32,000 nucleotides of DNA, taken from Geotalea daltonii FRC-32. Its GTDB lineage: Bacteria > Desulfobacterota > Desulfuromonadia > Geobacterales > Geobacteraceae. The stretch spans positions 3,330,001-3,362,000 of the forward strand of contig NC_011979.1 in NCBI RefSeq assembly GCF_000022265.1, written 5' to 3'. Both the position numbers and the translations under genes were made by a program. Each line of letters opens with the position of its first letter. The first letter of the stretch is position 1. The notes beneath the pieces are model-generated. The model did not search any database, was not told the DNA's origin, and saw only the letters and a program-made list of their open reading frames with translations. Shown here in pieces: positions 16,822-32,000 of the stretch.

Positions 16822-16855
16822 AAAAAAGAACGCCCACCCGGAACGGATAGGCGTC
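16822..16855 (-). terminator. Hairpin + U-tract ending the xre-pilMNOPQ-lipoprotein transcription unit
   Basis: Minus-strand RNA forms GACGCC-UAU-CCG-UUC-CGG-GUG-GGCGUU followed by CUUUUUUAAAA. It lies 50 nt after the stop of the 1044-aa gene and only about 28 nt before the aroC ATG. The stem is interrupted, so strength is uncertain. Confidence 0.5.
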
Positions 16856-16905: not shown

Positions 16906-19900
16906 TTAAATCAAATCGGTACTTTTTCTTTTATATAATATAGTGCCAGCAAACATAGCAGCTAAACTAAGTAAAAGTGCATAGTACTTAACAGCAAAAA
17001 TAAGGGGCGTAAGAGCCAAACGGGTTATGACTCTTAACATTTCATGCTCAGCAATAAAATCAGCAATCGGCGGACTTGTAGCATAATAGAACTTTACGAA
17101 GGCTTTACCAAGAGCATTTTTAAGAAGGATGTTATCCCGGAAATTTCTCAGCACTACAACGTGAGGGTCAAGATAGCTGCCATAGGCTGCCGTTGCGATA
17201 AAGCACCCGCTTTTGCCACCTGAAGGCGGTGGATTGCTGTCTAATGAACCAGTCCCTGTTCCGGTACCTGTTCCGGTACCTGTTCCTGGATCTGTTCCAG
17301 CTCCAGGTTGTGTAGAACCAGTCCCCGCAACATTAATCGAGGTTGAAAGAGACTTGTCTGTACTTATAGTGAGAGTTTGACCGGGATCTGGACCCGATGC
17401 AGAGGGTGAATATTTGATAGTTATGATCTGTTGACTGCCTGGCGCCATCGCAATGGGAAATGTGAGATTTTCGACTATCGAGAATGGTGCAGTTAAACCC
17501 GTAATAGAGGTGATATTGTAAGAGACTGAGCTGTTGTTGCCAAGGGTCAAGGTCAAGTCCTTCGTTTTGCCGACTTCAAGTATCTGAAAATCGAGGGTGC
17601 CGTTATTCGTACCATCATTTTCCTGCACTGTCATTGTGGGTGGAATGCCAATTCCGGAAAGATTGACGGTTCTGTCGCCTGCATCACTTCTGATAACGAA
17701 GTTACCGGTGAAGGTGCCGCCCGCAGTTGGGGCAAACTTGACAGTAAGTGTAGTTTCAACTGATGAGGCAAGGGTCAACACACTTGCATCAGTACAACTG
17801 CTTAATTCAGCAGGGATATTTTCAATACTGAACGGCGAACCGGGTAACGGCTCAATACAGTTGATGGTAAGAGGAATATCTCCAGTATTTTTTATTTTGA
17901 ATGTTTGTCTGCCTGTCTGGTTGGCGGTGACTTGGTTAAAATCAATTAGAGCAGGAGCCAGTGAGACATTAGTTTCGCTGAGGAGAGTCAGCTGGGGCTG
18001 GCCCAAAGAGAACCTTTGTGCATGGATATCTGCAGCATTAGTGTTAACTGCTGGCAAGGTCTGTTGTGTGCGCGCATCCTTCCACATGGCAAGGAATTGC
18101 CTGCCACTTGCGTCATTGGCGGAATTGTAAGCGATTACTGGCGAAAGCTGACTGCCGGGCGCAGTAGAGATGGAATAATTAGTTCCGCGTAAAGTTCCTT
18201 CCGTGTCAATATATTGACCGAAAATATCGAGATTCTCTGAAGACTGGGAACCATTACGGCCATCCTGCCATATCACAAAATACCTTTGCAGTACAGAATC
18301 ATAGGTAATATAAGGACGAGTCTGCCTTGTAGCGGCAACATTCGTATCTTGTGAACCATTTGCATCTGTGTCCTGGTAACTGATTATTGAGTTGATGTTA
18401 TAGAGGCCACCGCCTGATGATACGAGCTGTCCATAAATTTTGGTATTGGAACCGTCCCTTAAATCCTCCCAAACAACTAAAAATCTTTTGTTTGGTTGAT
18501 CAAAACCGATAGCTGGGTAGTTGGCATTCGAGGTGTTTGAGCCGTCAAATCGCATAGATTGGATGTTGGTTTGTTTGACGTTTTTGTCAAAAATTCCGTA
18601 GATGTGCTGCAATCCATCATCATAGGCAGACACCGTGGCTTTGGCAGTCACCGGCTCTCCTACGTCACAGCCTTTACTGTTGTTGAGGTCATCGCAGCTG
18701 CATACAACTTCAAGCTTTTGCCTGTTCCCTTCCCAAGCCAGCAACGTTTCTGAGGAAGTTGTGTCCGATGCGGCCACCACATTGTTAATATTAGTGAAAA
18801 ACTCGTAGGTATAACTGTCCGTCAGGGCAGCGGGAGCGTGAGCAATAAGCCTGTTGGAACGGGTAGCCTTATCCCTAACAATGTCGGCGCCTACCGGATT
18901 TCCAGAGCCATTCGAGAGACCGGTTGGCATTTCAGCAAGAGTGGCCTCATTCAGCATCACATAACCGGTAAAATTCGTGTCGCCAGTTGTATAATCGGTC
19001 TTGGCAAAACCGAAACAGGACTCTGAGATAAGGCTTTTTACATCCCTCGACTCAGTCCAGACGATCCAGAACCTTTGCCGGGTGCCGTCGTAGGTAATTT
19101 TTGGCGACTTCCGCGACAATAGCCGGTCACCCACGGTTGCGGTACTGGGAGTAACAGAGAACGTTTTATATATGTAGGATACCGTGACCTGCTGATTCAA
19201 TGCGGGAGGCACATCAAAAAGAATGGATAAGCTGCCAATATTGTAATTTATTGTGCCAGATCCCCCCGTGCCTGATATGCCACCGTTTCCGATGGTGTCA
19301 TTCAAGATAATACCGCCAGCTTTAACAATAACAGTTGTCGGTTTGACAGGTCTGTTCAAGCTTCCGGTAAAAGATTGTGATGTACCGTTACCAATGGCAA
19401 CAAGTGAGTCAGTGACAGCAAGTTCAGTAGTCACAATTGTAGGACTTTCCTCTAGTAAGCTGCTGTATCCAATTGCAGTACCCAAACTCGGCGCAGGGGG
19501 GGTATAGCCGCAGGTACCAGCCGTCGGGAATGATGTGATGGGGGCAACATAGACATATCCCCCTTCACCCTCATCGACAAAACCATTGCCGTTAAGGTCG
19601 CTAACCCTGGTATCCTGCCATGTGATAACAATCTTATCTTGAGTCAGTGAATAGGCGGCGGTTGGAACCGTCTGATTGCCTGGGGCATTGATCACAGGAA
19701 AAACAGGGCCGCACAGCGTGCCATCGGGGTTAATAAACTGTGCATATATATCCGTGCCGGTAGTATTCCTGTTACGCCAGTCCTCCCATACGGAGAAGTA
19801 GATATTCTTTCCTTCAAGGTAGATTACCTGAGGGTTCTGCTGATCGTCTGCAGCGTTGGAGACAATAATTTCACTCCCCTCAAGTTTCGCCAGCTTTTTC

Positions 19901-20040
19901 CCGGTAGCAGATATCTTTTCTGAGCCGATGACACCCTGTGCATTTTTTCCATTGTCGGCACCACAGCCGAAGATCAAACTAAAGCTGGTTAATATCAACA
20001 ATTTCACTAACAATCTATGCAAAGACATTCTCTCCTCCAT
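16906..20040 (-). CDS. Giant predicted surface lipoprotein: lipobox, ~7 W-x-[DE]-x-R repeats (propeller-like), two Ig-like domains, (GT)n linker, [11 protein letters not shown]-terminal domain with TM helix
   Basis: 1044-aa ORF. The signal peptide ends in the lipobox LIFG-C (Cys26). An alternative start is ATG 20028 with GGAGG 5 nt upstream. The repeat core is [FL]-[VI]-[VI]-W-x-D-x-R...DI[YF][GA]Q. Residues about 695-905 resemble ASH / choice-of-anchor-D type beta-sandwiches ([23 protein letters not shown]; [20 protein letters not shown]). The tail runs from Cys946: [28 protein letters not shown]...[12 protein letters not shown]..., then a hydrophobic helix and KRKSTDLI. Confidence 0.85.
17251..17305 (-). 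repeat. Short tandem repeat (about 12-nt unit GGTACCTGTTCC and variants) encoding the (Gly-Thr)n linker
   Basis: The plus strand reads agtccctgttccggtacctgttccggtacctgttcctggatctgttccagctcc. This translates on the minus strand to [20 protein letters not shown]. Confidence 0.7.
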
Positions 20041-20067: not shown

Positions 20068-20655
20068 TTATTGTGCTGACGTTTCGGCCCTGTCAGCAAA
20101 GGCTACGCTCATATTGGTAGAGAATTCCTGACGTGTACCAGTGCCACCGATTTCGACACCACTGAAAGTAATAGTCACATAATACTCATAAAGTGTACCG
20201 GAACAAGGCTGCAAATTATAGTCGGAAACGAGCTTGGACTTCAGAATTTCCGGGGCCACCGGCACAGGTATTAATGCAGTACCAGAGGTTATAACGATAC
20301 CGACTGGATAAGGTTGGGCGAGGATGGCAGGAGACACTGCATTCTTAGGCGTATAACTTACAGTAACAGTATCTATTCGGACAGGTAAAGGCGACATTGT
20401 CAGATTACGGTACGGGGTTGCAGCCACGTCAACATCTACGGAGTCGGTTTCGTATGCTCCGCCGGAGGTGGCACTGGTGGGACAGGTATTTCCTGTAATC
20501 ACATCGGATTCGAGCCTGACCGTTTGTGGTTGGGCTGTCATGGTAACGGTAGTAAATTCACCAGCCCCTCCGCCGGCATTCTGACTGCCGCATGACGACA
20601 GAAGAAAAAGAAAGCTTAAAAATACAACAGACTGAATACCCATACATCTAAACAT
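20068..20655 (-). CDS. Uncharacterised small lipoprotein (195 aa) directly downstream of pilQ
   Basis: The signal peptide ends in the lipobox LLSS-C (MFRCMGIQSVVFLSFLFLLSSCGSQ). GGGGGAG lies just upstream of ATG 20655, which is 10 nt after the pilQ stop. The mature part is Thr/Val/Pro-rich and looks beta-rich, with two further Cys. I recognise no family. Confidence 0.75.
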   Translation of the reverse strand: MFRCMGIQSVVFLSFLFLLSSCGSQNAGGGAGEFTTVTMTAQPQTVRLESDVITGNTCPTSATSGGAYETDSVDVDVAATPYRNLTMSPLPVRIDTVTVSYTPKNAVSPAILAQPYPVGIVITSGTALIPVPVAPEILKSKLVSDYNLQPCSGTLYEYYVTITFSGVEIGGTGTRQEFSTNMSVAFADRAETSAQ

Positions 20656-20665
20656 GCACTCCCCC

Positions 20666-23401
20666 TTAACTCACAATTTTAGGTGTTATGAAAATCAACA
20701 GCTCATTCTTTGATTTGTTTTTGGTGTTAGACTTGAAAAGCCACCCAAGCAATGGGATGTCCTGCAAGAAAGGAACTCCTTTGTCGCTTTCGGTGTCGCT
20801 GTCTACGTAAATGCCACCGATTACAGTCGTCTCACCATTTTTAATAAGAAGTTCTGTGGTTGCCTCTTTTTTGTTGATAGGAGGAGGAGAACCGGTGCCG
20901 GCAGAGTTATTGGATGCCTTGATCTTCATACCGATACTTCCATCAGAGGTGATATGGGGCGTGACCTCCAAAGTCAAAGCCGCTTCAACAAACTCAGTCT
21001 TAGTCCCTTCAGCAGAGGTTGTCTGATATGGAATAGATGCACCCTGCGAGATCTTTGCCGGTTTGTTGTTGAGCGTCACCACCCGCGGTGTGGACATTAT
21101 CTTGATCTGATCGGCAGTAACAGCGGCAGAAAGACGCATGTCAAGCTGAATATTGCTGGCAAGCTTACCGAATGACATGCCAACGGCAGCTCCTGGCCCA
21201 GAGGTACCTGAAGTGGGGGCTATTGCAACCTGTCCGCCAAAACCTGTATCAAGCCGGCTGATACCGGCAACAGATGCAGACCCGTCTATGTAATGAATTC
21301 CCCATTGCACCCCCAGATCTCGGACAAACGAAGTGCTTGCCTCGACAATCCGGGCCTCGATCATGACTTGCTTTTCCGGCGTATCAAGGCTTTTTAGAAG
21401 CATTCTCATGTCTTCAATTGCAGTTGTGATGTCCTTGACGATTACACGGTTGGTGCGTGCATCGGTACTTATGATACCACGATCACTTTTAAGAGTTCCG
21501 AACTGTGTTGCGATATCGGTGACAGCTGCGTAATTGACATCAAAAATCTCCGTACGCAACTCCATCCCTCTTTCACGGGCTTTCTTGGTAGCCATTTCCT
21601 CGTCAGCCTGGGATTGCATTTTTGCCTTTGGCTTGATTTGGACGATATTCCCTTCTTTCAACATACCCAAACCCTTAGTATCAAGAATTACGTCCAGAGC
21701 CTGATCCCATGGCACGTTAACAAGCTTGATACTGATGGTCCCTGTAACATCGTCAGCTATAAGGAAATTAAGGTTACTTACTTCTGCAATAAGCTGGAAG
21801 ATTTTACGTATATCAGCATCGGAAAACTCAAGGGTAACTTTTCTGCCTGAATATACCTTTTTCGGTTGTTGTTTTGAAACGACAGATTTTGGAAGTTCAC
21901 TAGTATCTGACTCTTTTGATGGTGATGCCAGCAATTCATCCTCTATTTTGGAAGAGATAGGAGCTGCCTTTTCCTTAACTTGACCGGATACCACTGCAGG
22001 AATAACTGGATTCTTCACTTCAAAGAGGTATAAATTCCCTTCTTTTCGATCAGAAAACGGGCTCTTGTTCCGGAGTTTTACCAGAATTCTGGCACTGGTA
22101 CCGCCTGCTACCTTTACCTGATAAGGTGTTACATTAAGAACCGAGCTGGCAAAGGCCTTGGTATCAAGAGTCCTTTGAAGTTTCTTGGGTAGTTCACAAT
22201 TTTTTAAGCTGAGGAGTATTCCTTTCGATGTTTCAGCCGGTTTGTCAATACTGCACACGCCAGCGGTCTTGATCTCTATTCTGGAAAATCCATCAACAAG
22301 TTTAAAATCAATGGATTCAATCGAACCTTTTTCAACATTGCCTGCTTTCTTGTTTCCAGAGCTTGATTTTAAAGTATCCGGTTCGACCGCTTGTGGCTTG
22401 GCTACAGTTTCTGCCCCTGATTGGGAAAACGATATGCTCAGCCCGGCAGCGGACTTTTCGATCCGGTAAGGCTCAATTTTTTCTTTCACTGAGTCAAAGA
22501 CAATCCGTACTTTTCCAGGAGAGATACCAATCCGGGCCTTTGCAATACCGAAGCGGTCTACGGGAATGGAGTTAGATTTTATAGAATTATTGATCTCGAA
22601 GAGGTCGACCACCAAGCGTCCAGGCTTATCCAGCTTAAAGGAAGTAAAAGTAGCCGGACCACCGGCAATTGACAATTCGATTTTATCATTCAGTACCTTA
22701 ATATCGCCAAGTGTCTTTGGTGCTCCTGATTCATTTTTATCATCGGCTGTAGCAGTGAATGAACTCTCTTTAGCCATCTTGTTATTTTCTGTGTCTGAAA
22801 CCCTGGGAGCAGTAGAGCCATTAACAATATCGTCCGGAGCAGCACCTGGTTCAGATTTTACGCCAACTTTTGCATTAGCATAATCATCGGCCGTTGTGTT
22901 TTTGGGCTCAGTCTTAGCTGACTGATCTTCTACCATTCTAGCTGTTTGTTCTTGAAGCTGCTTTGGTGTTAGGACAACATTAAGCTTTCCTTTGTCATTT
23001 GTATCTGTTTTGACAGAAAAATCGGTATCGGCTTTCAGATCTATTTCAACTCTGCTGAGGAAACCGCTGCCGAAATCCTGTCGCGTTACATTTATCCCTT
23101 TAATGTTTCCATTATCCGATACCAGTGGTTTTGTCTGCCCTGGTTCCGTTTGAGCTAGATCAATAAAAATCTTTGGGGGTTCACTTGTCTTGTAAGAGGT
23201 ATAGGTTAATGGTTTATTAGTTCGGATCTCGGCCATTGTGCCATTGTTTTTAATCTTTATTTCTTGAATCACAGCAAAAGAGTTTGTTTCAAGTAAGTCA
23301 GCATCTTGTGCTGCAACCATCTTCTTAGCACAGCCGGATACAGCCATTAAAAAAATAAGTATCAGGGTATGGCAAATGATTCTGAGTGAATTCATTTTCA
23401 T
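20666..23401 (-). CDS. pilQ: Type IV pilus secretin PilQ (three AMIN-like modules + N0/N1 + secretin core)
   Basis: 911 aa. The N0 region is KVTLEFSDADIRKIFQLIAEVSNLNFLIADDV. The C-terminal secretin block is GETTVIGGIY...KGVPFLQDIPLLGWLFK...ELLIFITPKIV. The start overlaps the pilP stop (ATGA). Confidence 0.95.
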   Translation of the reverse strand: MKMNSLRIICHTLILIFLMAVSGCAKKMVAAQDADLLETNSFAVIQEIKIKNNGTMAEIRTNKPLTYTSYKTSEPPKIFIDLAQTEPGQTKPLVSDNGNIKGINVTRQDFGSGFLSRVEIDLKADTDFSVKTDTNDKGKLNVVLTPKQLQEQTARMVEDQSAKTEPKNTTADDYANAKVGVKSEPGAAPDDIVNGSTAPRVSDTENNKMAKESSFTATADDKNESGAPKTLGDIKVLNDKIELSIAGGPATFTSFKLDKPGRLVVDLFEINNSIKSNSIPVDRFGIAKARIGISPGKVRIVFDSVKEKIEPYRIEKSAAGLSISFSQSGAETVAKPQAVEPDTLKSSSGNKKAGNVEKGSIESIDFKLVDGFSRIEIKTAGVCSIDKPAETSKGILLSLKNCELPKKLQRTLDTKAFASSVLNVTPYQVKVAGGTSARILVKLRNKSPFSDRKEGNLYLFEVKNPVIPAVVSGQVKEKAAPISSKIEDELLASPSKESDTSELPKSVVSKQQPKKVYSGRKVTLEFSDADIRKIFQLIAEVSNLNFLIADDVTGTISIKLVNVPWDQALDVILDTKGLGMLKEGNIVQIKPKAKMQSQADEEMATKKARERGMELRTEIFDVNYAAVTDIATQFGTLKSDRGIISTDARTNRVIVKDITTAIEDMRMLLKSLDTPEKQVMIEARIVEASTSFVRDLGVQWGIHYIDGSASVAGISRLDTGFGGQVAIAPTSGTSGPGAAVGMSFGKLASNIQLDMRLSAAVTADQIKIMSTPRVVTLNNKPAKISQGASIPYQTTSAEGTKTEFVEAALTLEVTPHITSDGSIGMKIKASNNSAGTGSPPPINKKEATTELLIKNGETTVIGGIYVDSDTESDKGVPFLQDIPLLGWLFKSNTKNKSKNELLIFITPKIVS

Positions 23402-23982
23402 CTGGAAATCTCCTTACTCTTCTTGGCCAATGGCAGAACTATTTTTCTGTTCTTTATACGTTTTTTCCCATCTAGATATTGTTCAGTCACTTCCAGGGAG
23501 GAGGCGGTTATTCTGGTGATGCGACCACCATTATCTCCGATCAACATACCGGTTTTAACAACATACCCCTTGCCTGTCGGGTCAATCAATAGGGCTTTAT
23601 TTTCTTTAAGCCCGGTAATGATGCCTGTAACGATAAACTTGCTGACCTCGTGGCTCTGTATGGGGAGGGCATCAACAATCCTGGTCCTGGTAGGCACAGG
23701 TGCTTTCACCGCAGCAGCCTCAGGAGCAGTAATCAAGGGTTTGAAGGGGTCTTTTTTGCTTTTGAAGACAAAGGCGCCTGTTGCTTGCCCCCCCACTTGT
23801 GATGTAGAAACGGATTTCTGCACAGCAGCACTTGGTTTCACCTGTGCTGTGGGCTGGGGCAGAGCCGGAGCCTGAGGATTAGGCTTTGGTGCCTCATCAT
23901 TCTTTTTGCATCCGCAGACAAGACAGGCGGTCATAAGACAAAAAGCCAAAACTAGAGACTGTTTATTTAGCCTTTTTTTCAT
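23398..23982 (-). CDS. pilP: Pilus assembly protein PilP
   Basis: 194 aa with a signal/lipoprotein-like N-terminus and a Pro/Ala-rich linker. The C-terminal beta-domain is FIVTGIITGLKENKALLIDPTGKGYVVKTGMLIGDNGGRITRITASSLEV. It sits between pilO and pilQ. Confidence 0.82.
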   Translation of the reverse strand: MKKRLNKQSLVLAFCLMTACLVCGCKKNDEAPKPNPQAPALPQPTAQVKPSAAVQKSVSTSQVGGQATGAFVFKSKKDPFKPLITAPEAAAVKAPVPTRTRIVDALPIQSHEVSKFIVTGIITGLKENKALLIDPTGKGYVVKTGMLIGDNGGRITRITASSLEVTEQYLDGKKRIKNRKIVLPLAKKSKEISR

Positions 23983-24562
23983 CCTTTATCTCTTTCTTGT
24001 CAAGGAAACGGAATGTTGTCGCCAGACAATTTACTTTGATAGTGGTCAAACCTTTACCTGTTTTAATTTCTGTAAAATTAACATTGGAGATATTTACAAT
24101 GCGAGGAAGCGCAGATACTGCCTGGAAGAAACTACCGATCTGATAAAAAGTTCCTGACACTGATATATCTACAGGAACCGCAGCATAGAAATCTTTGGGC
24201 TCCTCAGGTTTGGGTTTGAAAAGAAGGAACTCCAGTCCAGCACTTTTACCAGCATTTGCAATGCTTGTCAGAAGAGAGGGAATTTCCTTCTGATTAGGTA
24301 ACTCTGTCAACGCCAGTTTCAATTCGTTCTGTAATTGCTCATATTCCTGCTTGTATTTGGGAAGATTATTGGCTAGTTTCTGTGCCTCGGAAGCCTGTCT
24401 GCTTAAATCCTCAAGTTGAGTCTGCAGAGTCTTAAATTCTTTAAGCTTTGGTTGATAAAGGCCGAAAAAGAACCCGGCACCAAGTAAGCCTATAATGAGG
24501 AATAGCAGCCCAAGCTTTTGTTTGGCAGGAAGCTTTAATATCTTTTCAAACTGTGGGTTCAT
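23963..24562 (-). CDS. pilO: Pilus assembly protein PilO
   Basis: 199 aa with a single TM segment (KLGLLFLIIGLLGAGFFFGLY), a coiled coil, then a ferredoxin-like domain. It sits in the canonical operon position. Confidence 0.85.
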   Translation of the reverse strand: MNPQFEKILKLPAKQKLGLLFLIIGLLGAGFFFGLYQPKLKEFKTLQTQLEDLSRQASEAQKLANNLPKYKQEYEQLQNELKLALTELPNQKEIPSLLTSIANAGKSAGLEFLLFKPKPEEPKDFYAAVPVDISVSGTFYQIGSFFQAVSALPRIVNISNVNFTEIKTGKGLTTIKVNCLATTFRFLDKKEIKDEKKAK

Positions 24563-24598
24563 GAAAGCCCTCGGAAAGGACGCGAGCCGGCCCTTTAT

Positions 24599-25171
24599 TT
24601 ATTTTATCTTTTTATCTGGTTCGGGAGGGGCAAAGGCTGCAAGCTTTAATGTTATATCAAATCTCTTAGCTTTGGTTTTGGCTATTTCCGTTTGTTCCGA
24701 AACCTGGAGCTCCACATTGGTAAAATCAGGTATTGCCTGCAGGTTTTTCATAAGAGCTGCGATATCATCTTCACTGAAAGCAGCCCCAGAAAGTGATATT
24801 GTACCTGCAGATTCACTGTACTTGGTAAGCCATAGCTTATCAGGCACAGCATCACTAAGCATGGCAAGCCTGCTCACAGGACCTGTTTTTTCCTTTCGCA
24901 AACGGTTCAGAATGTCCAACTTCTTCTTTACTTCAGCTTGAAGCTTTTTGATATTGTCTATTTCACCAATCTTAGTCTTCAGCTGCTGGATTTCCTGTTC
25001 GGTTCTAGAGATTTCATCCTTTGCATGCGAAATCTTGGAAATAACCAGCGAGTACAGAACTGCACATACAGCCAGAGTACCTACTACAGTAATTACCAGT
25101 ATGGAAATCTGCTGTCTGGTCGTTTCCTTCTTCTTGGCTGCTCTAACCGGTAATAAATTAATTTTTATCAT
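24599..25171 (-). CDS. pilN: Pilus assembly protein PilN
   Basis: 190 aa with the conserved N-terminus MIKINLLPVR, which binds PilM, followed by a TM segment and a coiled coil. It overlaps pilM by 4 nt. Confidence 0.87.
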   Translation of the reverse strand: MIKINLLPVRAAKKKETTRQQISILVITVVGTLAVCAVLYSLVISKISHAKDEISRTEQEIQQLKTKIGEIDNIKKLQAEVKKKLDILNRLRKEKTGPVSRLAMLSDAVPDKLWLTKYSESAGTISLSGAAFSEDDIAALMKNLQAIPDFTNVELQVSEQTEIAKTKAKRFDITLKLAAFAPPEPDKKIK

Positions 25172-26220
25172 TTATCCCCAAGCCTCCTTGTCGCCAGTCC
25201 TATAGCAACAGTTACAAGAGGACCTATTTCTCTCAGGTATTCAGGATCAAATTCTTTTTGATCATACCTTACCTTCGAAAAGGGATTAAGTATTTCTACT
25301 GGTATACCCAGTTTCTGACTGACTGTTTCTGGTAACGAAGCAGATTTTGCTCCACCACCACTAAGATAAACCTTACTTATTTTGCCTTCTCCGGCAGTGG
25401 AATTATAGAAGTCAAGGGATCGTCGCATTTCAACGGCAAGTGTGTCATTTGCACGAGCCAAAACGTCTTTCAGTCTGCCATCATCAGCATCTGATTTAGC
25501 GATCTTCATTCTCTCTGCGTCTTCATTGTTAACACCAAATTGCTTTTGTATTTCCTCGTTAAACAGGGAACTACCGAGTTGAACATCGCGGGTAAACAGA
25601 GAAATTCCGTCCTTGACAATATTCATGTTCATGACGCTGGCACCTATGTTGACTAAAGCATTAACCTCTTCTGGGCTAACATCGTAGTTAAGCTCAAATG
25701 CGTTCTGAACAGCAAACGAGTCAACATCAACAACTGTAAGTCTCATGCCTGCTTCAGTGAAAACGGCCAGATAATCATTAATGATATCCTTTTTGCTAGC
25801 CACTAGAAGCACATTCATTTTGGAAGAATCAATATCATCTGGGGCAATGATCTGAAAATCTATATTAACATCGTTGATATCAAAAGGAATATATTGTTCT
25901 GCTTCCCAATGTATTTGTTCCTCAAGTTCTTCAGCAGGCATAACTGGTAAAGATATTTTTCTTATGATTACTGAGTTCCCGGAAATGGAACACGCCGCTT
26001 CTTTTGAAGTTATTTTCAGACTATCTATAAGAGTTTTGATTCCTTCAACTATTGAAGAACTGTCCATGAGAGTATTATCTACAATGGCCTCGGCGGGCAG
26101 TGGAATCAGCCCAACATTCTGCAACTGAAAGCTTCCTTTCTGCACCTTAAGCTGTACCAGCTTTATAGAACTGGATCCGATATCTACGCCAACAATATCC
26201 TTCTTTTTGGTAAAAAACAT
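25168..26220 (-). CDS. pilM: Actin-like ATPase-fold pilus assembly protein PilM
   Basis: 350 aa with the motifs VGVDIGSSSIKLVQL, IVDVDSFA-like (VVDVDSFAVQNAF) and YLSGGGAK. Confidence 0.95.
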   Translation of the reverse strand: MFFTKKKDIVGVDIGSSSIKLVQLKVQKGSFQLQNVGLIPLPAEAIVDNTLMDSSSIVEGIKTLIDSLKITSKEAACSISGNSVIIRKISLPVMPAEELEEQIHWEAEQYIPFDINDVNIDFQIIAPDDIDSSKMNVLLVASKKDIINDYLAVFTEAGMRLTVVDVDSFAVQNAFELNYDVSPEEVNALVNIGASVMNMNIVKDGISLFTRDVQLGSSLFNEEIQKQFGVNNEDAERMKIAKSDADDGRLKDVLARANDTLAVEMRRSLDFYNSTAGEGKISKVYLSGGGAKSASLPETVSQKLGIPVEILNPFSKVRYDQKEFDPEYLREIGPLVTVAIGLATRRLGDK

Positions 26221-26859: not shown

Positions 26860-27498
26860 CTAGTAAGCATAAAGGACCGAGAGGCGAGCACGTTCCTTTG
26901 CATTGCTCTCGGCCTCACTTTCCACCTCGATACGATATATATAAGGAAGATGTGGTACCCCTATCAGCGAACCACCTGGGTTGTACGCCACTCCGATCGG
27001 ATCGATAAGCTTTTCTCCATTTTCAGCACCTCCGCTGGATGTATCAGTATTGCCAGCAGTAGTGTCGACTATCTTGGAATTAACGACAAAACCGGGCATG
27101 GACGGCATCCCTTTCAAATGGAAGGTGACATCTGGGGACACTTTGGCATTAGGGTCCGAGTTCGATGTGATGCAATTCGTCCATTCCGATGTGGAGAACC
27201 TCAATTTCTGTTGCAGGCAAGCGTTGGTTACTGGGACATCAAGATTAATTCCGCTAAATTCTGACATAAGTCTATTTGTAGAGTATCCGCCAAAAATTTT
27301 AGGAATGATATCTTTAGCAAATACCTGAACGCCGCCATGTGCAGCTTCTAGAGATGTTTTGTACCTTTTGTTGGCAGCGGATATGTAGGTCCCTTGAGTT
27401 ATGTAATATAGAAGAGTTAGACATATGACCAGGGAAATCAGCGTCAGCATAAGAGCTGTCACTAGGGCCACACCATTTTCATTTCTAAGACACCTCAT
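26860..27498 (-). CDS. pilX: PilX-like minor pilin (PilX_N type, no Glu5)
   Basis: 212 aa. The N-terminus MRCLRNENGVALVTALMLTLISLVICLTLL matches the G-[AV]-x-L-[IV]-x-A-L hydrophobic PilX N-domain pattern. AGGTGG lies upstream. It is the last gene of the minor-pilin operon. Confidence 0.72.
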   Translation of the reverse strand: MRCLRNENGVALVTALMLTLISLVICLTLLYYITQGTYISAANKRYKTSLEAAHGGVQVFAKDIIPKIFGGYSTNRLMSEFSGINLDVPVTNACLQQKLRFSTSEWTNCITSNSDPNAKVSPDVTFHLKGMPSMPGFVVNSKIVDTTAGNTDTSSGGAENGEKLIDPIGVAYNPGGSLIGVPHLPYIYRIEVESEAESNAKERARLSVLYAY

Positions 27499-27574
27499 TT
27501 CACACCACCTTTATGCTTCTCCTGAGGAAATCACTCTCTATTTAAAAAAGACATCAAGTTTACAACGTCTGAAC

Positions 27575-28759
27575 CTAATCCAGGTTAGTCGGCTTGATGG
27601 CAAGCGTATATATCTTCCACCTGTAATTCTGCCAATCAGGACCAAATCTGGCTGCCAAGTCAGCCGCACTCCAGATTCTGCCGAAAGAGACGGTAAAGGC
27701 AGGATCACCTACCACTAATGCCTTGCTTGTATCATTCACTGGATAGATAAAGTTTCTATCCCTGCCTCCTTCATGGGCAAGTATATAGACTCTAACTCTC
27801 TTCAAGGACTCTCTGATTGTCTTGGCAGTATAGCCATCGAGGTTCTTAGCATAGGTGATGTTGCCATCGTTCAAAAGATCGAGCTCGAACGCCACTTGCA
27901 TATCACCTACGCAGTCGAGAAGTGGGTACTGAACGAATCCACCTGTAGTATGTACGGCTACGCCCTTGTAGAGTACTCCTGTTCCTGGATTACAGGAAGA
28001 AGGAACATTGGAAGGCCTGTTTACATAAAAATCAGCACGGTTATATGGCATCCTCAATGGCTTATCATCGATACCATAGACAGTGAAAATCTGTGACGGG
28101 GTGACTGGTTTATAAGCGTCAGTCGCCGGGAACAGGCCAGCATAACTATAATAAAAGGCGGCACCGTCATTCGCCAGTTGTCTATCAATGGTGCCGGCTT
28201 TTTGGTTGGTGATGTTGATAAGGGTAACAACATTCTCACCATTGACAAAGTTATCGCTCAGGGTGCTCCACTGTTTTATATAGCTCTCGTTGGTGGCAAT
28301 CCCACCTGATTCATTTACGGAATAGTTGACGAAACTCCATTTTTTACTGGTTGCATTAATGGAGGCCATCGTAGATTTGACCACAAGATAGTCAATGCCA
28401 GTGGTCGTGCTGGTAGCGCTGGCTATGGCTTTTGGAATTTTATCAGGGCCCAGGGAAACCATATCGTTGAATGAATTAGAATCAATGCCATCGGCAAGAA
28501 AGCCTGCAGTAACATCGACTTCGGGATATGTCAATGGACTGCGGAAGGACCACGGAAGACCATATCCTGCATGTTCAATATCAAAGCGCATCAGGTTAAG
28601 ACCCACTTGCCCCTCGATCTGGGTCTCCACCGATCTGGACTGCTGTCCTGCAGTCTGAGTGATCTTTTCGAAGGCCGAAGAACTTATCATGATGACCGTA
28701 ATGAAAATAGCCATCACAACCAAAAGCTCTACAAGCGTATAACCTTTCTTATTCGGCAT
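27575..28759 (-). CDS. pilW: PilW-like minor pilin (large, 394 aa)
   Basis: I place the start at ATG 28759 (MPNKKG/YTLVELLVVMAIFITVIM) with GGAGAA 7 nt upstream; the track starts at 28807. It has a class III prepilin signal with Glu5. Confidence 0.72.
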   Translation of the reverse strand: MPNKKGYTLVELLVVMAIFITVIMISSSAFEKITQTAGQQSRSVETQIEGQVGLNLMRFDIEHAGYGLPWSFRSPLTYPEVDVTAGFLADGIDSNSFNDMVSLGPDKIPKAIASATSTTTGIDYLVVKSTMASINATSKKWSFVNYSVNESGGIATNESYIKQWSTLSDNFVNGENVVTLINITNQKAGTIDRQLANDGAAFYYSYAGLFPATDAYKPVTPSQIFTVYGIDDKPLRMPYNRADFYVNRPSNVPSSCNPGTGVLYKGVAVHTTGGFVQYPLLDCVGDMQVAFELDLLNDGNITYAKNLDGYTAKTIRESLKRVRVYILAHEGGRDRNFIYPVNDTSKALVVGDPAFTVSFGRIWSAADLAARFGPDWQNYRWKIYTLAIKPTNLD

Positions 28760-28809
28760 GATACGTTCTCCGACATAATTTGTCACTACAGTGCCCCATA
28801 TGGTCACTA

Positions 28810-29220
28810 TTACTTGGATTTAATGGACACAACCTGATGATGGAAAGAGGATATATTCTTAAATTTCCATCTTATATCGACAATCAACTGCTTCGAGTCC
28901 CCAGTCAGGTTTGAAACGATCTGTTTGACCGCATAGGTACTACTAAAACCAGGTCTCCTGCTGGAGACTTGGGTGGTTTTCTCTGCGCTGGTAAGCATGG
29001 CAAAAGGCTTTGCTTTCATGGCATGCATGGTGACTTCCCCTATTTCCACAGCCTCGTCCCGCATCTGATTCCGCAGGTTGTGTTCGGTAGCGAGGATCAC
29101 TGTCTGCAACAGCCCAAGAAGACCGACTGTCATAATCAAAATGCTGACCATAACCTCAATAAGGGTAAACCCCGAATTATCTGGTTTTGATATCGTCTGC
29201 AACACAAGCACCTCCTTCAT
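28810..29220 (-). CDS. pilV: PilV-like minor pilin
   Basis: Prepilin motif ...SKPDNSG/FTLIEVMVSILIMTVGLLGL. The start is ambiguous: ATG 29220, or GTG 29205 / TTG 29202, which lie 5-8 nt after AAGGAGG. The track start at 29289 is unlikely. The gene overlaps the fimT 3' end. Confidence 0.78.
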   Translation of the reverse strand: MKEVLVLQTISKPDNSGFTLIEVMVSILIMTVGLLGLLQTVILATEHNLRNQMRDEAVEIGEVTMHAMKAKPFAMLTSAEKTTQVSSRRPGFSSTYAVKQIVSNLTGDSKQLIVDIRWKFKNISSFHHQVVSIKSK

Positions 29221-29680
29221 CCCGCTTACCCAGTTGAATCCGGGCTGCCGACAGTACAATGCTGTCAAGGGCTGCGGGATTACCGCCATCTAAAATGCAG
29301 ATGCTCCTCCCACCTAATCCAGGATTAGATAATAAACCATAGGAATCGAAATTTAATTGCCCGGAGGAGCCATTCCAGATCATGGAATACTTAAAATCTT
29401 TCTTAAAAAGGGGAGGTACAGAAACATTGCTGGAGGAATAAACAGAATAAGCCGAGGAGCTTATGATCACCGAGCGGGGTTGCCTAGTGAACATGGCTTG
29501 CGACCTCACAGTCATTATATCTCCATGAAGCATGCGGACCTGGCTCTCAATAGATGATTTCCTGGAGTAATGGGTGAACTGCAATGTGGCAATGGATAGC
29601 AAAACTCCGGCAATAGCCATGACTATGAGCAATTCAATAAGGGAAAATCCATGGCTTCGCATCTTAGTGCTCCTGAACAT
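29177..29680 (-). CDS. fimT: FimT/FimU (GspH-like) minor pilin
   Basis: Prepilin motif MRSHG/FSLIELLIVMAIAGVLLSIA followed by the GspH-type segment SIESQVRMLHGDIMTVRSQAM. An alternative and perhaps better start is ATG 29662, with AGGAG 8 nt upstream and 1 nt after the pilY1 stop. Confidence 0.8.
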   Translation of the reverse strand: MFRSTKMRSHGFSLIELLIVMAIAGVLLSIATLQFTHYSRKSSIESQVRMLHGDIMTVRSQAMFTRQPRSVIISSSAYSVYSSSNVSVPPLFKKDFKYSMIWNGSSGQLNFDSYGLLSNPGLGGRSICILDGGNPAALDSIVLSAARIQLGKRDEGGACVADDIKTR

Positions 29681-32000
29681 GGAGAATCCTTTTTAATGGG
29701 TCAAGACCCACGTTAGAAACAATTGGAGGAGCATCTAATGACGGTTTGCCAGTCATTCCAGCCCCCATTCTGCGCCCTTTTTTGTCGGTAAATGCAGTGG
29801 GCAAGTCAACCTCCTCAAAGCTACCTGTAGAAACCTGGACCAGGGCCTTTCCTACCAAGCTGCGAGAAGGGACAGCCAGACCAGTGTAATAATTGACAGC
29901 CCATAGGTAGGAAGTACCGCCAAAGGAGCAGATGTCTTCAGTGGGTTTGAAACTGGTAAAGTATACATTGCCGCTAGTAACCGCAGATGGGTTGGTAATT
30001 ACTCTTTCGCCATTAAAGTTGTTTCCCGCAAGATCCAGGTTGATGTACCATCCTTTGTCGCCCAGAAAGGACAATCCATTTGCAGTGCCTGAGGTCTGGT
30101 CAGTCAGATCGGAAAGAGAAAGTGATGCACTGCAATTGTTGTCATTAATGTCCCCTCCCGTGGTTTCTGTACCGTCCAGGTGGGTGACAGGGTCTTTATA
30201 ACAGGGCTCCTGAATGCCAAATAGCCGGCGCTGCTTTGCAGCATCAGTACCTGGATCGTCACCGGGATAATAGAAGCGACCGGTGCCGAAAAAGAGATAG
30301 AGATTTTTGCCCTGAAGGGTGGCGATGCTGGTGGTAACCGGTCCGATACCATCCATGACCCTACTGACCTGCCACTGGGTCGGAGGGTTCAAGGTTGACG
30401 GATCGGTATTTTCAGGTATCACAACACGTAAAACCCCGCCGTCGGCCCAGCTACCATCAGCCGCCTTTTTAACATAGCCAACATAAAGGGCGTCGTCCTG
30501 ATAGTTACCAGGTGCCCCAAGACGAAGTCTGTCCGTGTCGACCACATTGGAAGAAAGAGAACCGGCAAATGCATTGGGGACACCAGTATCAATTTTCCAG
30601 TAGCCGGCACCAGGTCCCTTCTCAAGGTCTACAACGAAGAGCTGCAGGTTCTGATCCGACACTCCCTTGAACTGGTGGCTGGCAGTATCTATGGGACCAG
30701 TGGGTCCAGAAGCAAACACAGCAAGCCAGCGGCCATTGGTGTTCGGGTCAGCAACCCCGCCGGTGCGGCCATTAATCTTGATAATTGCAGGCCCAGAGGT
30801 GGCAAAACCCAAGGCAGGGTCTGAGAATTCCCATAGAAGTTTTGGTTTATTTGCCAGAGTGCCACCAGGCGAGGTGAAGTACTGCTCTGTTATATCAAGG
30901 GCGAAATAGGAAGAATATCCCAACCCTTTACTACCATCTGCTGGGTCCATGATGGGAGTCTTAACACAAGTCCCTGCGGTAACCTTGTCCGTGCAGGTAG
31001 TTACCTTCTCAGCCTTTGAGGCGCCGCCTATTCCCATTCCTCCGATCAGTACCGTTTTCCAGCTGCTGACATCTTTCTGACAGTTCCAGTAATCGGAAGT
31101 TGAACAAGTGGTAGGCTTTGCAGTACTGATGTCGAAGAGGGAAGTGCTCCCGTCCACGAAGTAAATATGATTGTAGCTGGGTTCAGCCAGATACTTAAGA
31201 TAAGGCAAAACATTTTTGGGAACATAGGCCCACTCCTCATTTCCCAGATCCTCGCCGGACAGTGTCGCCAGTTTCGAAAAATTCTCTGTTATCTCCAGCT
31301 TGCCCAATTTAAAGGCATGGAGCATACCATCATTGGCCCCCACATAGACCATGCCCCTGTTCTGATAGCTGTTCGAATAAATAAAACCACTATTATTGGA
31401 GTAATCCCCATAGCTTTTGTCGCGATAGCCTTTCGGCTCCTTTAAATTGTAACTATTGAGAGGGACGGTGGATTGCAACCGGGGTGTAGAAGAAACGATA
31501 TCCCCCAGCTTCCAAACATGGCTTCCCAGAAGACTGCCATCCGGCTTATTTATGGAAACCGTTCTGCTCCGATAGGTAGGGGGATTGTCAACACCATGGA
31601 TATAGTTTATTACGCTTTCCGCCTCCCCCACTGTTGTCGCCTGAAGATAAGGCTGGAGCAAACTCGAGTTGTTGACTGCAGGGCTACCTGGAAAAAGGCT
31701 GGATGAAAAATTTATGAGGGAAGTACTATCAGTAGAGGTGTAGATTTTCCGCGGTTTGGCAGACAGATCCCTTTCCCAAAGCTGAAGGCCCGCCCGCCAG
31801 AGGCTCCTTACTGCATCCGGGTCAATTGTATCAAAGGTTTTTTCGACAAGTTTGGGATCGACAAACCTCCTGGCCATCGTTCTATCATCCGAACTAAAAA
31901 AGAACTGGATAACCTTGTCTTTGCTTAGATTGAGAACATGATCAAAATCAGAATCCTCCCTGATATTACTGTTTACAAAGTATGGATCAATGTAATACCA
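29664..32000 (-). CDS. pilY1: PilY1/PilC-family pilus tip adhesin, C-terminal ~780 aa (5' end beyond window)
   Basis: It carries the hallmark beta-propeller motif GMVYVGANDGMLHAFKLG. I checked every in-frame codon upstream of the track's Met (31877) to position 32000 and found no stop, so the gene continues off-window. Confidence 0.9.
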   Translation of the reverse strand, partial: WYYIDPYFVNSNIREDSDFDHVLNLSKDKVIQFFFSSDDRTMARRFVDPKLVEKTFDTIDPDAVRSLWRAGLQLWERDLSAKPRKIYTSTDSTSLINFSSSLFPGSPAVNNSSLLQPYLQATTVGEAESVINYIHGVDNPPTYRSRTVSINKPDGSLLGSHVWKLGDIVSSTPRLQSTVPLNSYNLKEPKGYRDKSYGDYSNNSGFIYSNSYQNRGMVYVGANDGMLHAFKLGKLEITENFSKLATLSGEDLGNEEWAYVPKNVLPYLKYLAEPSYNHIYFVDGSTSLFDISTAKPTTCSTSDYWNCQKDVSSWKTVLIGGMGIGGASKAEKVTTCTDKVTAGTCVKTPIMDPADGSKGLGYSSYFALDITEQYFTSPGGTLANKPKLLWEFSDPALGFATSGPAIIKINGRTGGVADPNTNGRWLAVFASGPTGPIDTASHQFKGVSDQNLQLFVVDLEKGPGAGYWKIDTGVPNAFAGSLSSNVVDTDRLRLGAPGNYQDDALYVGYVKKAADGSWADGGVLRVVIPENTDPSTLNPPTQWQVSRVMDGIGPVTTSIATLQGKNLYLFFGTGRFYYPGDDPGTDAAKQRRLFGIQEPCYKDPVTHLDGTETTGGDINDNNCSASLSLSDLTDQTSGTANGLSFLGDKGWYINLDLAGNNFNGERVITNPSAVTSGNVYFTSFKPTEDICSFGGTSYLWAVNYYTGLAVPSRSLVGKALVQVSTGSFEEVDLPTAFTDKKGRRMGAGMTGKPSLDAPPIVSNVGLDPLKRILHVQEH

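Follow-up and report, generated by a model that had tools for sequence, protein, structure and literature searches.

The C-terminal tail of a large predicted lipoprotein, encoded beside the type IV pilus genes of Geotalea daltonii FRC-32, belongs to the CFI-box family. Here, we analyse this tail in a stretch of 32,000 nucleotides (contig NC_011979.1, positions 3,330,001 to 3,362,000; referred to as the window, with coordinates counted from its first letter) and compare it with its relatives in bacteria, an archaeon and viruses. The reading that we favour, with confidence a little short of even, is that the last 99 residues of this 1044-aa protein form a composite membrane anchor and not a short, cleavable signal of the sortase type. 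The conserved part, the CFI core, would be an autonomous four-helix domain of ~70 residues, with an invariant Cys as its first residue and, ahead of it, a flexible linker that usually ends in Gly, and the stop-transfer transmembrane helix and cytoplasmic basic tail that follow would be an add-on of exported members only.

By its score, the tail is a genuine and ordinary member of a family that has been catalogued but not characterised. The preliminary description of this DNA had pointed to an NCBI model for a CFI-box-CTERM domain and proposed a hidden Markov model (HMM) search with it; that search matched NF041770 (CFI_box_CTERM) to residues 946-1014 at 106.4 bits (E 4.8e-31, model positions 1-69 of 69), where the curated cut-off is 40 bits. 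At its C-terminus the protein has the CFIATA..GS, LRxFRD and YY..SP..A motifs, with no sequence difference from the family. The model excludes the membrane helix and the KRK of the 1044-aa protein. The 99 residues quoted earlier match the C-terminus of a minus-strand open reading frame (ORF) exactly, and the layout described for them, a Cys after a flexible (GT)n/PPPSGGKSG linker followed by a conserved module, a helix and a basic tail, agrees with the translation. The gene and its parts are as follows.

16906..20040, minus strand: whole gene of the 1044-aa predicted exported lipoprotein, from the ORF list, with a TAA stop codon at 16908-16906
19963..20040, minus strand: predicted signal peptide and lipobox, aa 1-26 (...SLIFG-C26), with a hydrophobic stretch at aa 6-30
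17974..19863, minus strand: N-terminal passenger, ~aa 60-689 (~630 residues), with six W-x-[DE]-x-R ... IY[AG]Q-type repeats found by regular expression on the translation
17326..17973, minus strand: two Ig-like domains of the choice-of-anchor D / ASH / Cep192 type, aa 690-905 (NF012200 at 63.6 bits in two stretches; PF22073, PF15780, PF22544)
17206..17325, minus strand: flexible linker, aa 906-945, (GT)n then PPPSGGKSG, last residue Gly945, from the translation
16999..17205, minus strand: CFI-box core, aa 946-1014, with the CFIATA..GS start, LRxFRD, G, YY..SP..A and predicted helices H1-H4 (NF041770)
16933..16998, minus strand: end of hydrophobic H4 and predicted transmembrane helix, aa 1015-1036 (Kyte-Doolittle windows >1.6 from aa 1008-1017)
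16909..16932, minus strand: basic tail KRKSTDLI, from the translation, predicted to be cytoplasmic; the family consensus there is R/K-R/K-R/K

Read on the plus strand, 16906..20040 gives nonsense with stop codons. The codon of Cys946 occupies 17205-17203, 99 residues from the protein end, and the window holds one CFI box. Hydrophobic stretches are two only: aa 6-30, in the signal peptide, and aa 1008-1036, which supplies a predicted transmembrane segment at the extreme C-terminus and is followed by the basic cluster KRK (family consensus RRR). Beside the helix the protein reads K-Y-Y, in contrast to the family motif [KE]-Y-P (Y 80%, P 87%). SLIFG-C26 matches the PROSITE-type lipobox pattern, which makes the protein a predicted lipoprotein and candidate substrate of Lgt and LspA; among the 61 homologues of the passenger that have a CFI box, 57 show a lipobox-type Cys at the equivalent position, and the +2 residue is Ser in 46 of 51. 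The passenger repeats start at aa 85, 141, 328, 524, 591 and 653; distant homologues of the passenger match the TIGR04275 β-propeller repeat, and its fold is probably that of a β-propeller. Underlying the (Gly-Thr)n part of the linker is a 12-bp tandem repeat, present in 3.7 copies (CCTGTTCCGGTA on the plus strand, 17255-17298), so the linker could vary in length by slippage. An identical 1044-aa protein is present on a Logan metagenome contig, and its homologues, at 73-33% identity, include several that NCBI names 'CFI-box-CTERM domain-containing protein'.

The family is large and widespread. A profile search with the domain recovered 30,517 clusters of 50% identity when the threshold was E ≤ 1e-3, and 24,095 when it was E ≤ 1e-10, so that few uncharacterised C-terminal domains are more abundant in sequence data; a search of one literature library with the CFI-box name and motif variants found no publication on the domain. 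An exact-motif scan, with one genome per species, listed at least 600 matches. Confirmed among the matches listed were Geobacteraceae, Desulfuromonadaceae, Syntrophaceae, Nitrospirota, Nitrospinae, Gammaproteobacteria, Phycisphaerae, Bacillota and one bacterium of the candidate phyla radiation (CPR), and several genomes among them have 2-3 CFI loci, in some cases as tandem pairs. Overall, the domain was found in diderms, monoderms, CPR bacteria and one archaeon.

The evidence that bears most directly on the nature of the core comes from CFI proteins with neither signal peptide nor membrane helix. Cases of this cytoplasmic type emerged from a tblastn search of plasmids and phages, with scores of 83-97 bits across the whole of the NF041770 model. 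They include a 283-aa tetratricopeptide repeat (TPR)-CFI protein that is the sole cargo gene of a 5.2-kb Acinetobacter lwoffii plasmid; fusions of a cold-shock domain (CSD) and Zn-ribbon to the core in Burkholderia and a Comamonadaceae strain; an Mrr-nuclease, WYL and CFI protein on plasmid PL47 of the archaeon Haloquadratum walsbyi; a Haliscomenobacter protein whose gene lies beside an Hsp70 gene; and a Zn-ribbon/TPR protein of a Clostridioides phage. A further 16 loci, from IMG/VR, have HNH and Zn-ribbon/TPR fusions. PADLOC bears out the Mrr, WYL and CSD parts of the fusions, and has no model that covers the CFI core itself. A profile built from the helix-less proteins found 1248 more; 104 of the top 106 matches lack a membrane-helix-like tail, including four missed by the strict motif pattern. 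Many helix-less members are 84-175 aa long and come from gut Firmicutes or Bacteroidota, some with a leader of just 7-13 residues ahead of the Cys.

The core is the same in both classes. Its first Cys is present in 100% of the 371 sequences of the helix-bearing conservation table, a best-scoring and hence biased sample, and in 100% of the 106 of the helix-less set. C1, A4, G9, L19, R20, R23, D24, L27, Y40 and P45 are common to the two, and Gly precedes the Cys in 74% of the helix-bearing class versus 79% of the helix-less class. They differ at the far end. The last helix of the helix-less proteins is amphipathic and cationic (hydrophobic moment µH 0.57 versus 0.28 when shuffled; tail net charge +5), whereas the helix-bearing class ends instead in a hydrophobic H4 (LTP...[KE]YP) and the membrane helix. 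Because cytoplasmic proteins carry the same core, recognition by a periplasmic or intramembrane sorting enzyme cannot account for its conservation. The database family has the same ambiguity built in: its name implies a sorting signal, yet its model lacks a transmembrane segment and also captures cytoplasmic proteins.

Several observations on the helix-less proteins stand beside this comparison. Loci at which the core sits on nucleic-acid-related or defence-type proteins, or on the Acinetobacter plasmid protein, are L084 (1333-2184), L085 (4653-5234), L086 (3218-4252), L091 (1507-3222), L092, L093 (2608-3249) and L101-L115. The cold-shock domain of the CFI fusion resembles the retron Se72 effector, and the Mrr-WYL-CFI gene of the archaeal plasmid adjoins HNH and restriction endonuclease genes. 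On gut-metagenome contigs (L096; L097, 5622-9021), a 164-aa helix-less protein (P0463, seen on 36 contigs) is encoded beside a Sel1-repeat protein and flanked on the other side by genes for a 95-aa protein, a radical S-adenosylmethionine (SAM) enzyme and a 38-aa ORF; this flank looks like a peptide-modification cluster.

Structure prediction is consistent with a self-standing domain. The AlphaFold2 (AF2) model of the tail is compact and all-helical (predicted local distance difference test, pLDDT, 90.1), with H1-H4 at domain residues 2-8, 14-25, 31-53 and 55-73 and the membrane helix at 75-97, and it puts the invariant motif ~65-70 residues of predicted helical domain away from the membrane helix. 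A member without membrane helix is predicted to have the same four helices (pLDDT 74). No significant relative was found in the PDB, either by Foldseek with both AF2 models or by a profile search of PDB sequences, and Pfam gave no match on aa 946-1044, neither Hint nor S74 (PF13884) included. Against BFVD, the best Foldseek match of the model without membrane helix was A0A6J5QZ65 (probability 0.80, TM 0.59, 25% identity), which at E 1.2 is non-significant. That entry is a 492-aa protein of an uncultured phage, annotated with an intramolecular chaperone auto-processing domain.

In the helix-bearing class, the domain behaves as an anchor might. C1, F2, A4, T5, A6 and G9 are 100% conserved among the 371 best-scoring sequences, and about half of the first 75 positions in this sample reach 90% conservation or more. 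Gly makes up 40% and Ser 16% of the 15 residues that precede the Cys. From the Cys to the stop codon there are 84-124 residues in 85 of 87 CFI ORFs, and an N-terminal signal peptide or lipobox is found in 65 of the 72 that are complete. The passengers are mutually unrelated and include β-propellers, MXAN_6640-type metalloproteases, NHL, Calx-beta and YD repeats. Among homologues of the passenger studied here, 61 of 107 have a CFI tail, and the rest have other tails or no anchor; the alternatives are a near-threshold MYXO-CTERM (P0224; 19.6 bits, cut-off 20), an unclassified 'GGGC...TM...RRKKK' tail (P0152, P0222) and type IX secretion system (T9SS) tails (P0226, P0227), and Nitrospirota members occur without any anchor. 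Strict C-terminal placement, a Gly/Ser linker, secreted carriers and exchange of tails are together the expected conduct of a C-terminal anchor or sorting module. Anchoring at both ends, as the preliminary description had it, stands as a prediction for this protein, with its lipobox and C-terminal helix; it is particular to this passenger family and does not extend to CFI proteins in general, among which a lipobox is found in 10 of 72 complete ORFs.

One Nitrospirota subfamily bears on topology. Here, an in-frame fusion joins passenger, CFI core, membrane helix, RRRK, a signal-peptide-like helix (..ALG/ADA) and a 260-aa outer-membrane β-barrel (PF13557 Phenol_MetA_deg / OMP_b-brl; P0250, P0266, P0296, P0316; L018, 548-2149). 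Four different passengers occur in these fusions, whose layout is polyprotein- or autotransporter-like. Since the helix and RRRK are followed by a signal-like helix and an outer-membrane barrel, the membrane helix would be oriented N-out, C-in. The barrel was considered as general CFI machinery and rejected, since tblastn found it in only 1 of ~80 genome loci.

Some apparent exceptions were set aside. Helix-bearing hits of 100-175 aa that appear to be stand-alone proteins are mostly gene fragments, as shown by Gly-rich linkers, frameshift-prone long-read contigs and contig ends, and most 'internal' CFI domains are read-through of tandem CFI genes (P0228, P0230, P0231), the barrel fusions excepted. 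The 'CTERM' rule is not absolute: the core is internal in a few divergent members (L088, 3716-4729; L052), among them a Ralstonia solanacearum megaplasmid protein (L088) with the core at aa 96-165 of 337 and a score of 46 bits, just above the cut-off.

No cognate enzyme could be placed next to the domain. As the preliminary description had supposed, the window holds none: Pfam searches of all its sizeable ORFs found no protease, sortase, exosortase, rhomboid or CPBP protein. The survey was then widened to the 1074 neighbour ORFs of 83 CFI loci from many phyla, clustered all-against-all, among which no protease or transpeptidase recurs. The largest cluster consists of generic sigma-54-type response regulators, and the other recurrent neighbours are subfamily-specific, namely the 195-aa lipoprotein that accompanies orthologues of this protein and a 186-aa protein encoded upstream of the metalloprotease-CFI subfamily. 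Among the 74 multi-transmembrane neighbours, the top Pfam family has 3 members; exosortase is found twice, and CPBP and rhomboid at most once each. The analogy with sortase-, exosortase- or archaeosortase-type domains that had been drawn for this tail is thus not supported, given a motif ~70 folded residues from the helix, a core that is also cytoplasmic and no recurrent linked enzyme.

These results can be assembled into the composite anchor that we favour. Sec would export the protein, and the general lipoprotein pathway would lipidate Cys26 and remove the signal peptide. The C-terminal helix would halt translocation, leaving KRK in the cytoplasm and the CFI core, connected through a flexible linker of ~40 residues, against the periplasmic side of the inner membrane; the positive-inside rule and the barrel-fusion subfamily both point to this N-out/C-in topology. 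The core would do the same job in every compartment, most likely association with the membrane surface and possibly self-association, with cytoplasmic members using a cationic amphipathic last helix and exported members swapping in a hydrophobic H4 and transmembrane helix. The tail would not be removed by a dedicated sortase-like enzyme. Simple anchors of both kinds are familiar: Listeria ActA is held by an uncleaved C-terminal hydrophobic tail, and MinD and FtsA have C-terminal amphipathic membrane-targeting helices. As in ActA, a C-terminal helix with positive residues would retain the exported CFI proteins, and, as in MinD and FtsA, the cytoplasmic members end in a cationic amphipathic helix. 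In contrast to CFI, none of these anchors is known to have a conserved folded domain or an invariant Cys in front.

Several points weigh against the composite anchor. A plain anchor has no need of an invariant first Cys after Gly, which hints at chemistry at the domain boundary, and the model leaves any chemistry of the Gly-Cys junction unexplained. The occurrence of cleaved-type tails (MYXO-CTERM-like, T9SS) on homologous passengers suggests functional equivalence with cleavable signals, and LTP and [KE]YP, specific to the helix-bearing class and adjacent to the helix, could be an enzyme recognition site. In the Lol pathway of Escherichia coli, a lipoprotein with Ser at +2 normally goes to the outer membrane, although rules may differ in this lineage; by that analogy, Ser at +2 would imply a destination that a permanent inner-membrane helix obstructs. 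Lastly, the neighbourhood survey reaches linked genes only, which leaves room for an unlinked enzyme.

Such an enzyme is the premise of the strongest alternative, which we consider unlikely: that the tail is a true sorting signal, cleaved at Gly945-Cys946 or at [KE]YP by a dedicated, unlinked enzyme such as a relative of the CPBP/Rce1-type 'myxosortase'. The tail would first hold the protein at the inner membrane, cleavage would follow, possibly after lipidation of the Cys, and the passenger would then move to the outer membrane or cell surface, perhaps via the adjacent PilQ secretin or a type II secretion system (T2SS). The exchange of CFI for MYXO-CTERM-like or T9SS tails on homologous passengers argues for this, as do the occurrence of the MXAN_6640-type metalloprotease passenger with a CFI tail too and the several CFI genes per genome, tandem pairs included. 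A lipobox accompanies the Cys-type C-terminal tail (CFI or MYXO-like) in 59 of 63 homologues of the passenger and is found in 0 of 44 that lack such a tail (P0121-P0227), a coupling that could reflect shared ancestry or a functional link between the two ends. A lipoprotein with Ser at +2 would also have to be freed from an inner-membrane helix before it could arrive at the outer membrane. Cargo with MYXO-CTERM or GlyGly-CTERM signals depends on the secretin-based T2SS, and the CFI gene adjoins pilQ, a secretin gene.

MYXO-CTERM and other CPBP-processed Cys signals are close counterparts. Like CFI, they have an invariant Cys, a Gly/Ser-rich linker, a helix, a basic tail and varied exported passengers, and tails of their type interchange with the CFI tail among passenger homologues. 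They are, however, only ~30-35 residues long, with the Cys motif against the helix, where CFI interposes a ~70-residue four-helix domain; and, unlike them, CFI has no linked CPBP gene, no TIGR03901 match on the 1044-aa protein (E ≤ 1) and a core that is also cytoplasmic without a helix. The wider group of tripartite signals (LPXTG/sortase, PEP-CTERM/exosortase, PGF-CTERM/archaeosortase and GlyGly-CTERM/rhombosortase) shares with CFI the C-terminal position, helix, basic cluster and signal peptides, as well as several carriers per genome. In LPXTG, PEP-CTERM, GlyGly-CTERM and MYXO-CTERM, the motif abuts the membrane helix. CFI differs in having no short motif at the helix and no cognate enzyme nearby (exosortase at 2 of 80 loci), and its core is not confined to exported proteins. 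What makes a sorting signal unlikely is thus the folded domain of ~65 residues between motif and helix, and a motif equally invariant in cytoplasmic proteins, which could not come into contact with such an enzyme. CPBP, rhomboid, exosortase and sortase do not recur near 80 loci, and conservation across phyla is very high, whereas known enzyme-matched signals diverge lineage by lineage. The database name invites the reading of an orphan sortase signal, and the 'sorting signal' label of the family is questionable. The autonomy of the core shifts interest to its oligomeric state, membrane binding and Gly-Cys reactivity rather than to a missing sortase.

That last property is central to a second alternative, self-processing, which we regard as doubtful and place below a sorting signal. 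Here, the core would itself catalyse an N-to-S acyl shift at the Gly-Cys bond, in any compartment and with no partner enzyme, and the thioester would be resolved by water, releasing the passenger, or by a membrane nucleophile, giving C-terminal lipidation. The conserved region does start exactly at the invariant Cys, the domain is C-terminal in nearly all members, cytoplasmic and exported alike, no linked enzyme was found, cross-phylum conservation is unusually high for a 70-residue tail, and the leaders of 7-13 residues on stand-alone members would suit a propeptide. The cleavage junction of Hedgehog proteins is G-C-F, and with Gly at -1 in 74-79% of members the G-C-[FY] junction of CFI would be Hedgehog-like. 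In Hedgehog/Hint proteins and in peptidase S74, as in CFI, a C-terminal domain has an invariant nucleophile as its first residue after the passenger; S74 is moreover partly helical and needs no partner enzyme. The resemblance ends at the fold. Hint domains are β-rich, ~140 residues long and contain a TxxH motif, and S74 starts with S-D-x-R-x-K and uses a Ser-Lys dyad. The CFI core, predicted to be all-α and ~70 residues long, has neither the β-rich fold nor TxxH, and it matches no Pfam Hint or S74 model. Its sole link to S74 is the BFVD match, whose annotation fits self-processing but whose E of 1.2 is non-significant.

Chemistry and context also count against self-processing. We know of no all-α autoprocessing fold of ~70 residues, and no His or other general base is common to both classes, with D13, H15, H54 and E55 specific to the helix-bearing class. 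A Cys-His-Asp triad was rejected on the same ground, as H15, H54 and D13 are conserved only in that class. Lipidation of Cys946 by Lgt, as a second lipobox, was likewise rejected, as this Cys has no hydrophobic helix ahead of it. The CFI proteins of viruses belong to the Zn-ribbon/TPR/HNH kind and are not tail fibres, and the idea that CFI substitutes for the S74 chaperone domain on phage fibres was discarded, since the 16 IMG/VR loci do not encode fibres. If true, self-processing would give a small all-α counterpart of Hedgehog/Hint or S74 autoprocessing and would explain how >24,000 CFI clusters, on exported and cytoplasmic carriers, can exist without a known sorting enzyme.

The remaining alternative concerns the operon in which the gene lies, the other elements of which are as follows.

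16829..16855, minus strand: terminator-like hairpin between the CFI gene and aroC (12 pairs, 7 of them GC, and a T-run)
20068..20655, minus strand: 195-aa lipoprotein of no known family (no Pfam or NCBIfam match)
20666..26220, minus strand: pilM-pilN-pilO-pilP-pilQ, the last encoding the secretin (Pfam PilM_2, PilN, PilO, PilP, Secretin+AMIN)

The genes are co-directional, with 10 bp between pilQ (20666-23401) and the 195-aa gene and 27 bp between the latter and the CFI gene; the hairpin before aroC makes the CFI gene the last of the pil transcription unit. The 195-aa gene lies directly upstream (28-122 bp) of CFI orthologues at seven loci (L001, L004, L005, L008, L011, L014, L027), with pilQ upstream of the pair at L004, L005, L008 and L011, and the order pilQ, 195-aa gene, CFI gene was seen again in Geomonas oryzae and several Geobacteraceae metagenome-assembled genomes. 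This arrangement suggests that, in relatives of Geobacter, the two lipoproteins are an unrecognised accessory pair of the secretin or type IV pilus machinery. It might be taken further, to a trans-envelope tether in which the 1044-aa protein, its N-terminal lipid in the outer membrane and its CFI helix in the inner membrane, bridges the periplasm together with the 195-aa lipoprotein beside PilQ and PilMNOP. This we think improbable: the compact pilMNOPQ-195aa-CFI unit with its 10-27-bp gaps and terminator, the synteny kept in Geobacteraceae loci and the presence of both a lipobox and a membrane helix at the C-terminus in 57 of the 61 members fit a tether, but no Lol-sorted lipoprotein is known to us that retains an inner-membrane helix, synteny by itself is no proof of a pilus function, the passenger family in Nitrospirota also occurs without any anchor, and Geobacter pil clusters that lack the 195-aa/CFI gene pair presumably exist. 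Anchoring at two ends, as predicted here, is relevant to the organisation of pilus or secretion machines that span the envelope.

A different small gene accompanies CFI in another subfamily. The MXAN_6640-type HExxH metalloprotease passenger (NF045524, 197 bits) has a CFI tail at L026, L033, L039, L044, L055, L072, L077 (3453-6475) and L082, and at 8 of 8 loci the gene upstream (0-2 bp, touching or overlapping) encodes a 166-202-aa protein of no known family.

Elsewhere in the window are pilY1-like and minor pilin genes, aroC/B/Q, accBC, gcvH and mqnD-like, nifS/U-like and ubiD-like genes. Upstream of pilM, at 26860-31877, lie genes for a PilY1-like β-propeller protein (737 aa), three proteins with prepilin-type N-methylation motifs (159, 167 and 410 aa) and an unannotated ORF of 212 aa. 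They are a minor-pilin/PilY1 set and form part of the same pilus locus as pilMNOPQ.

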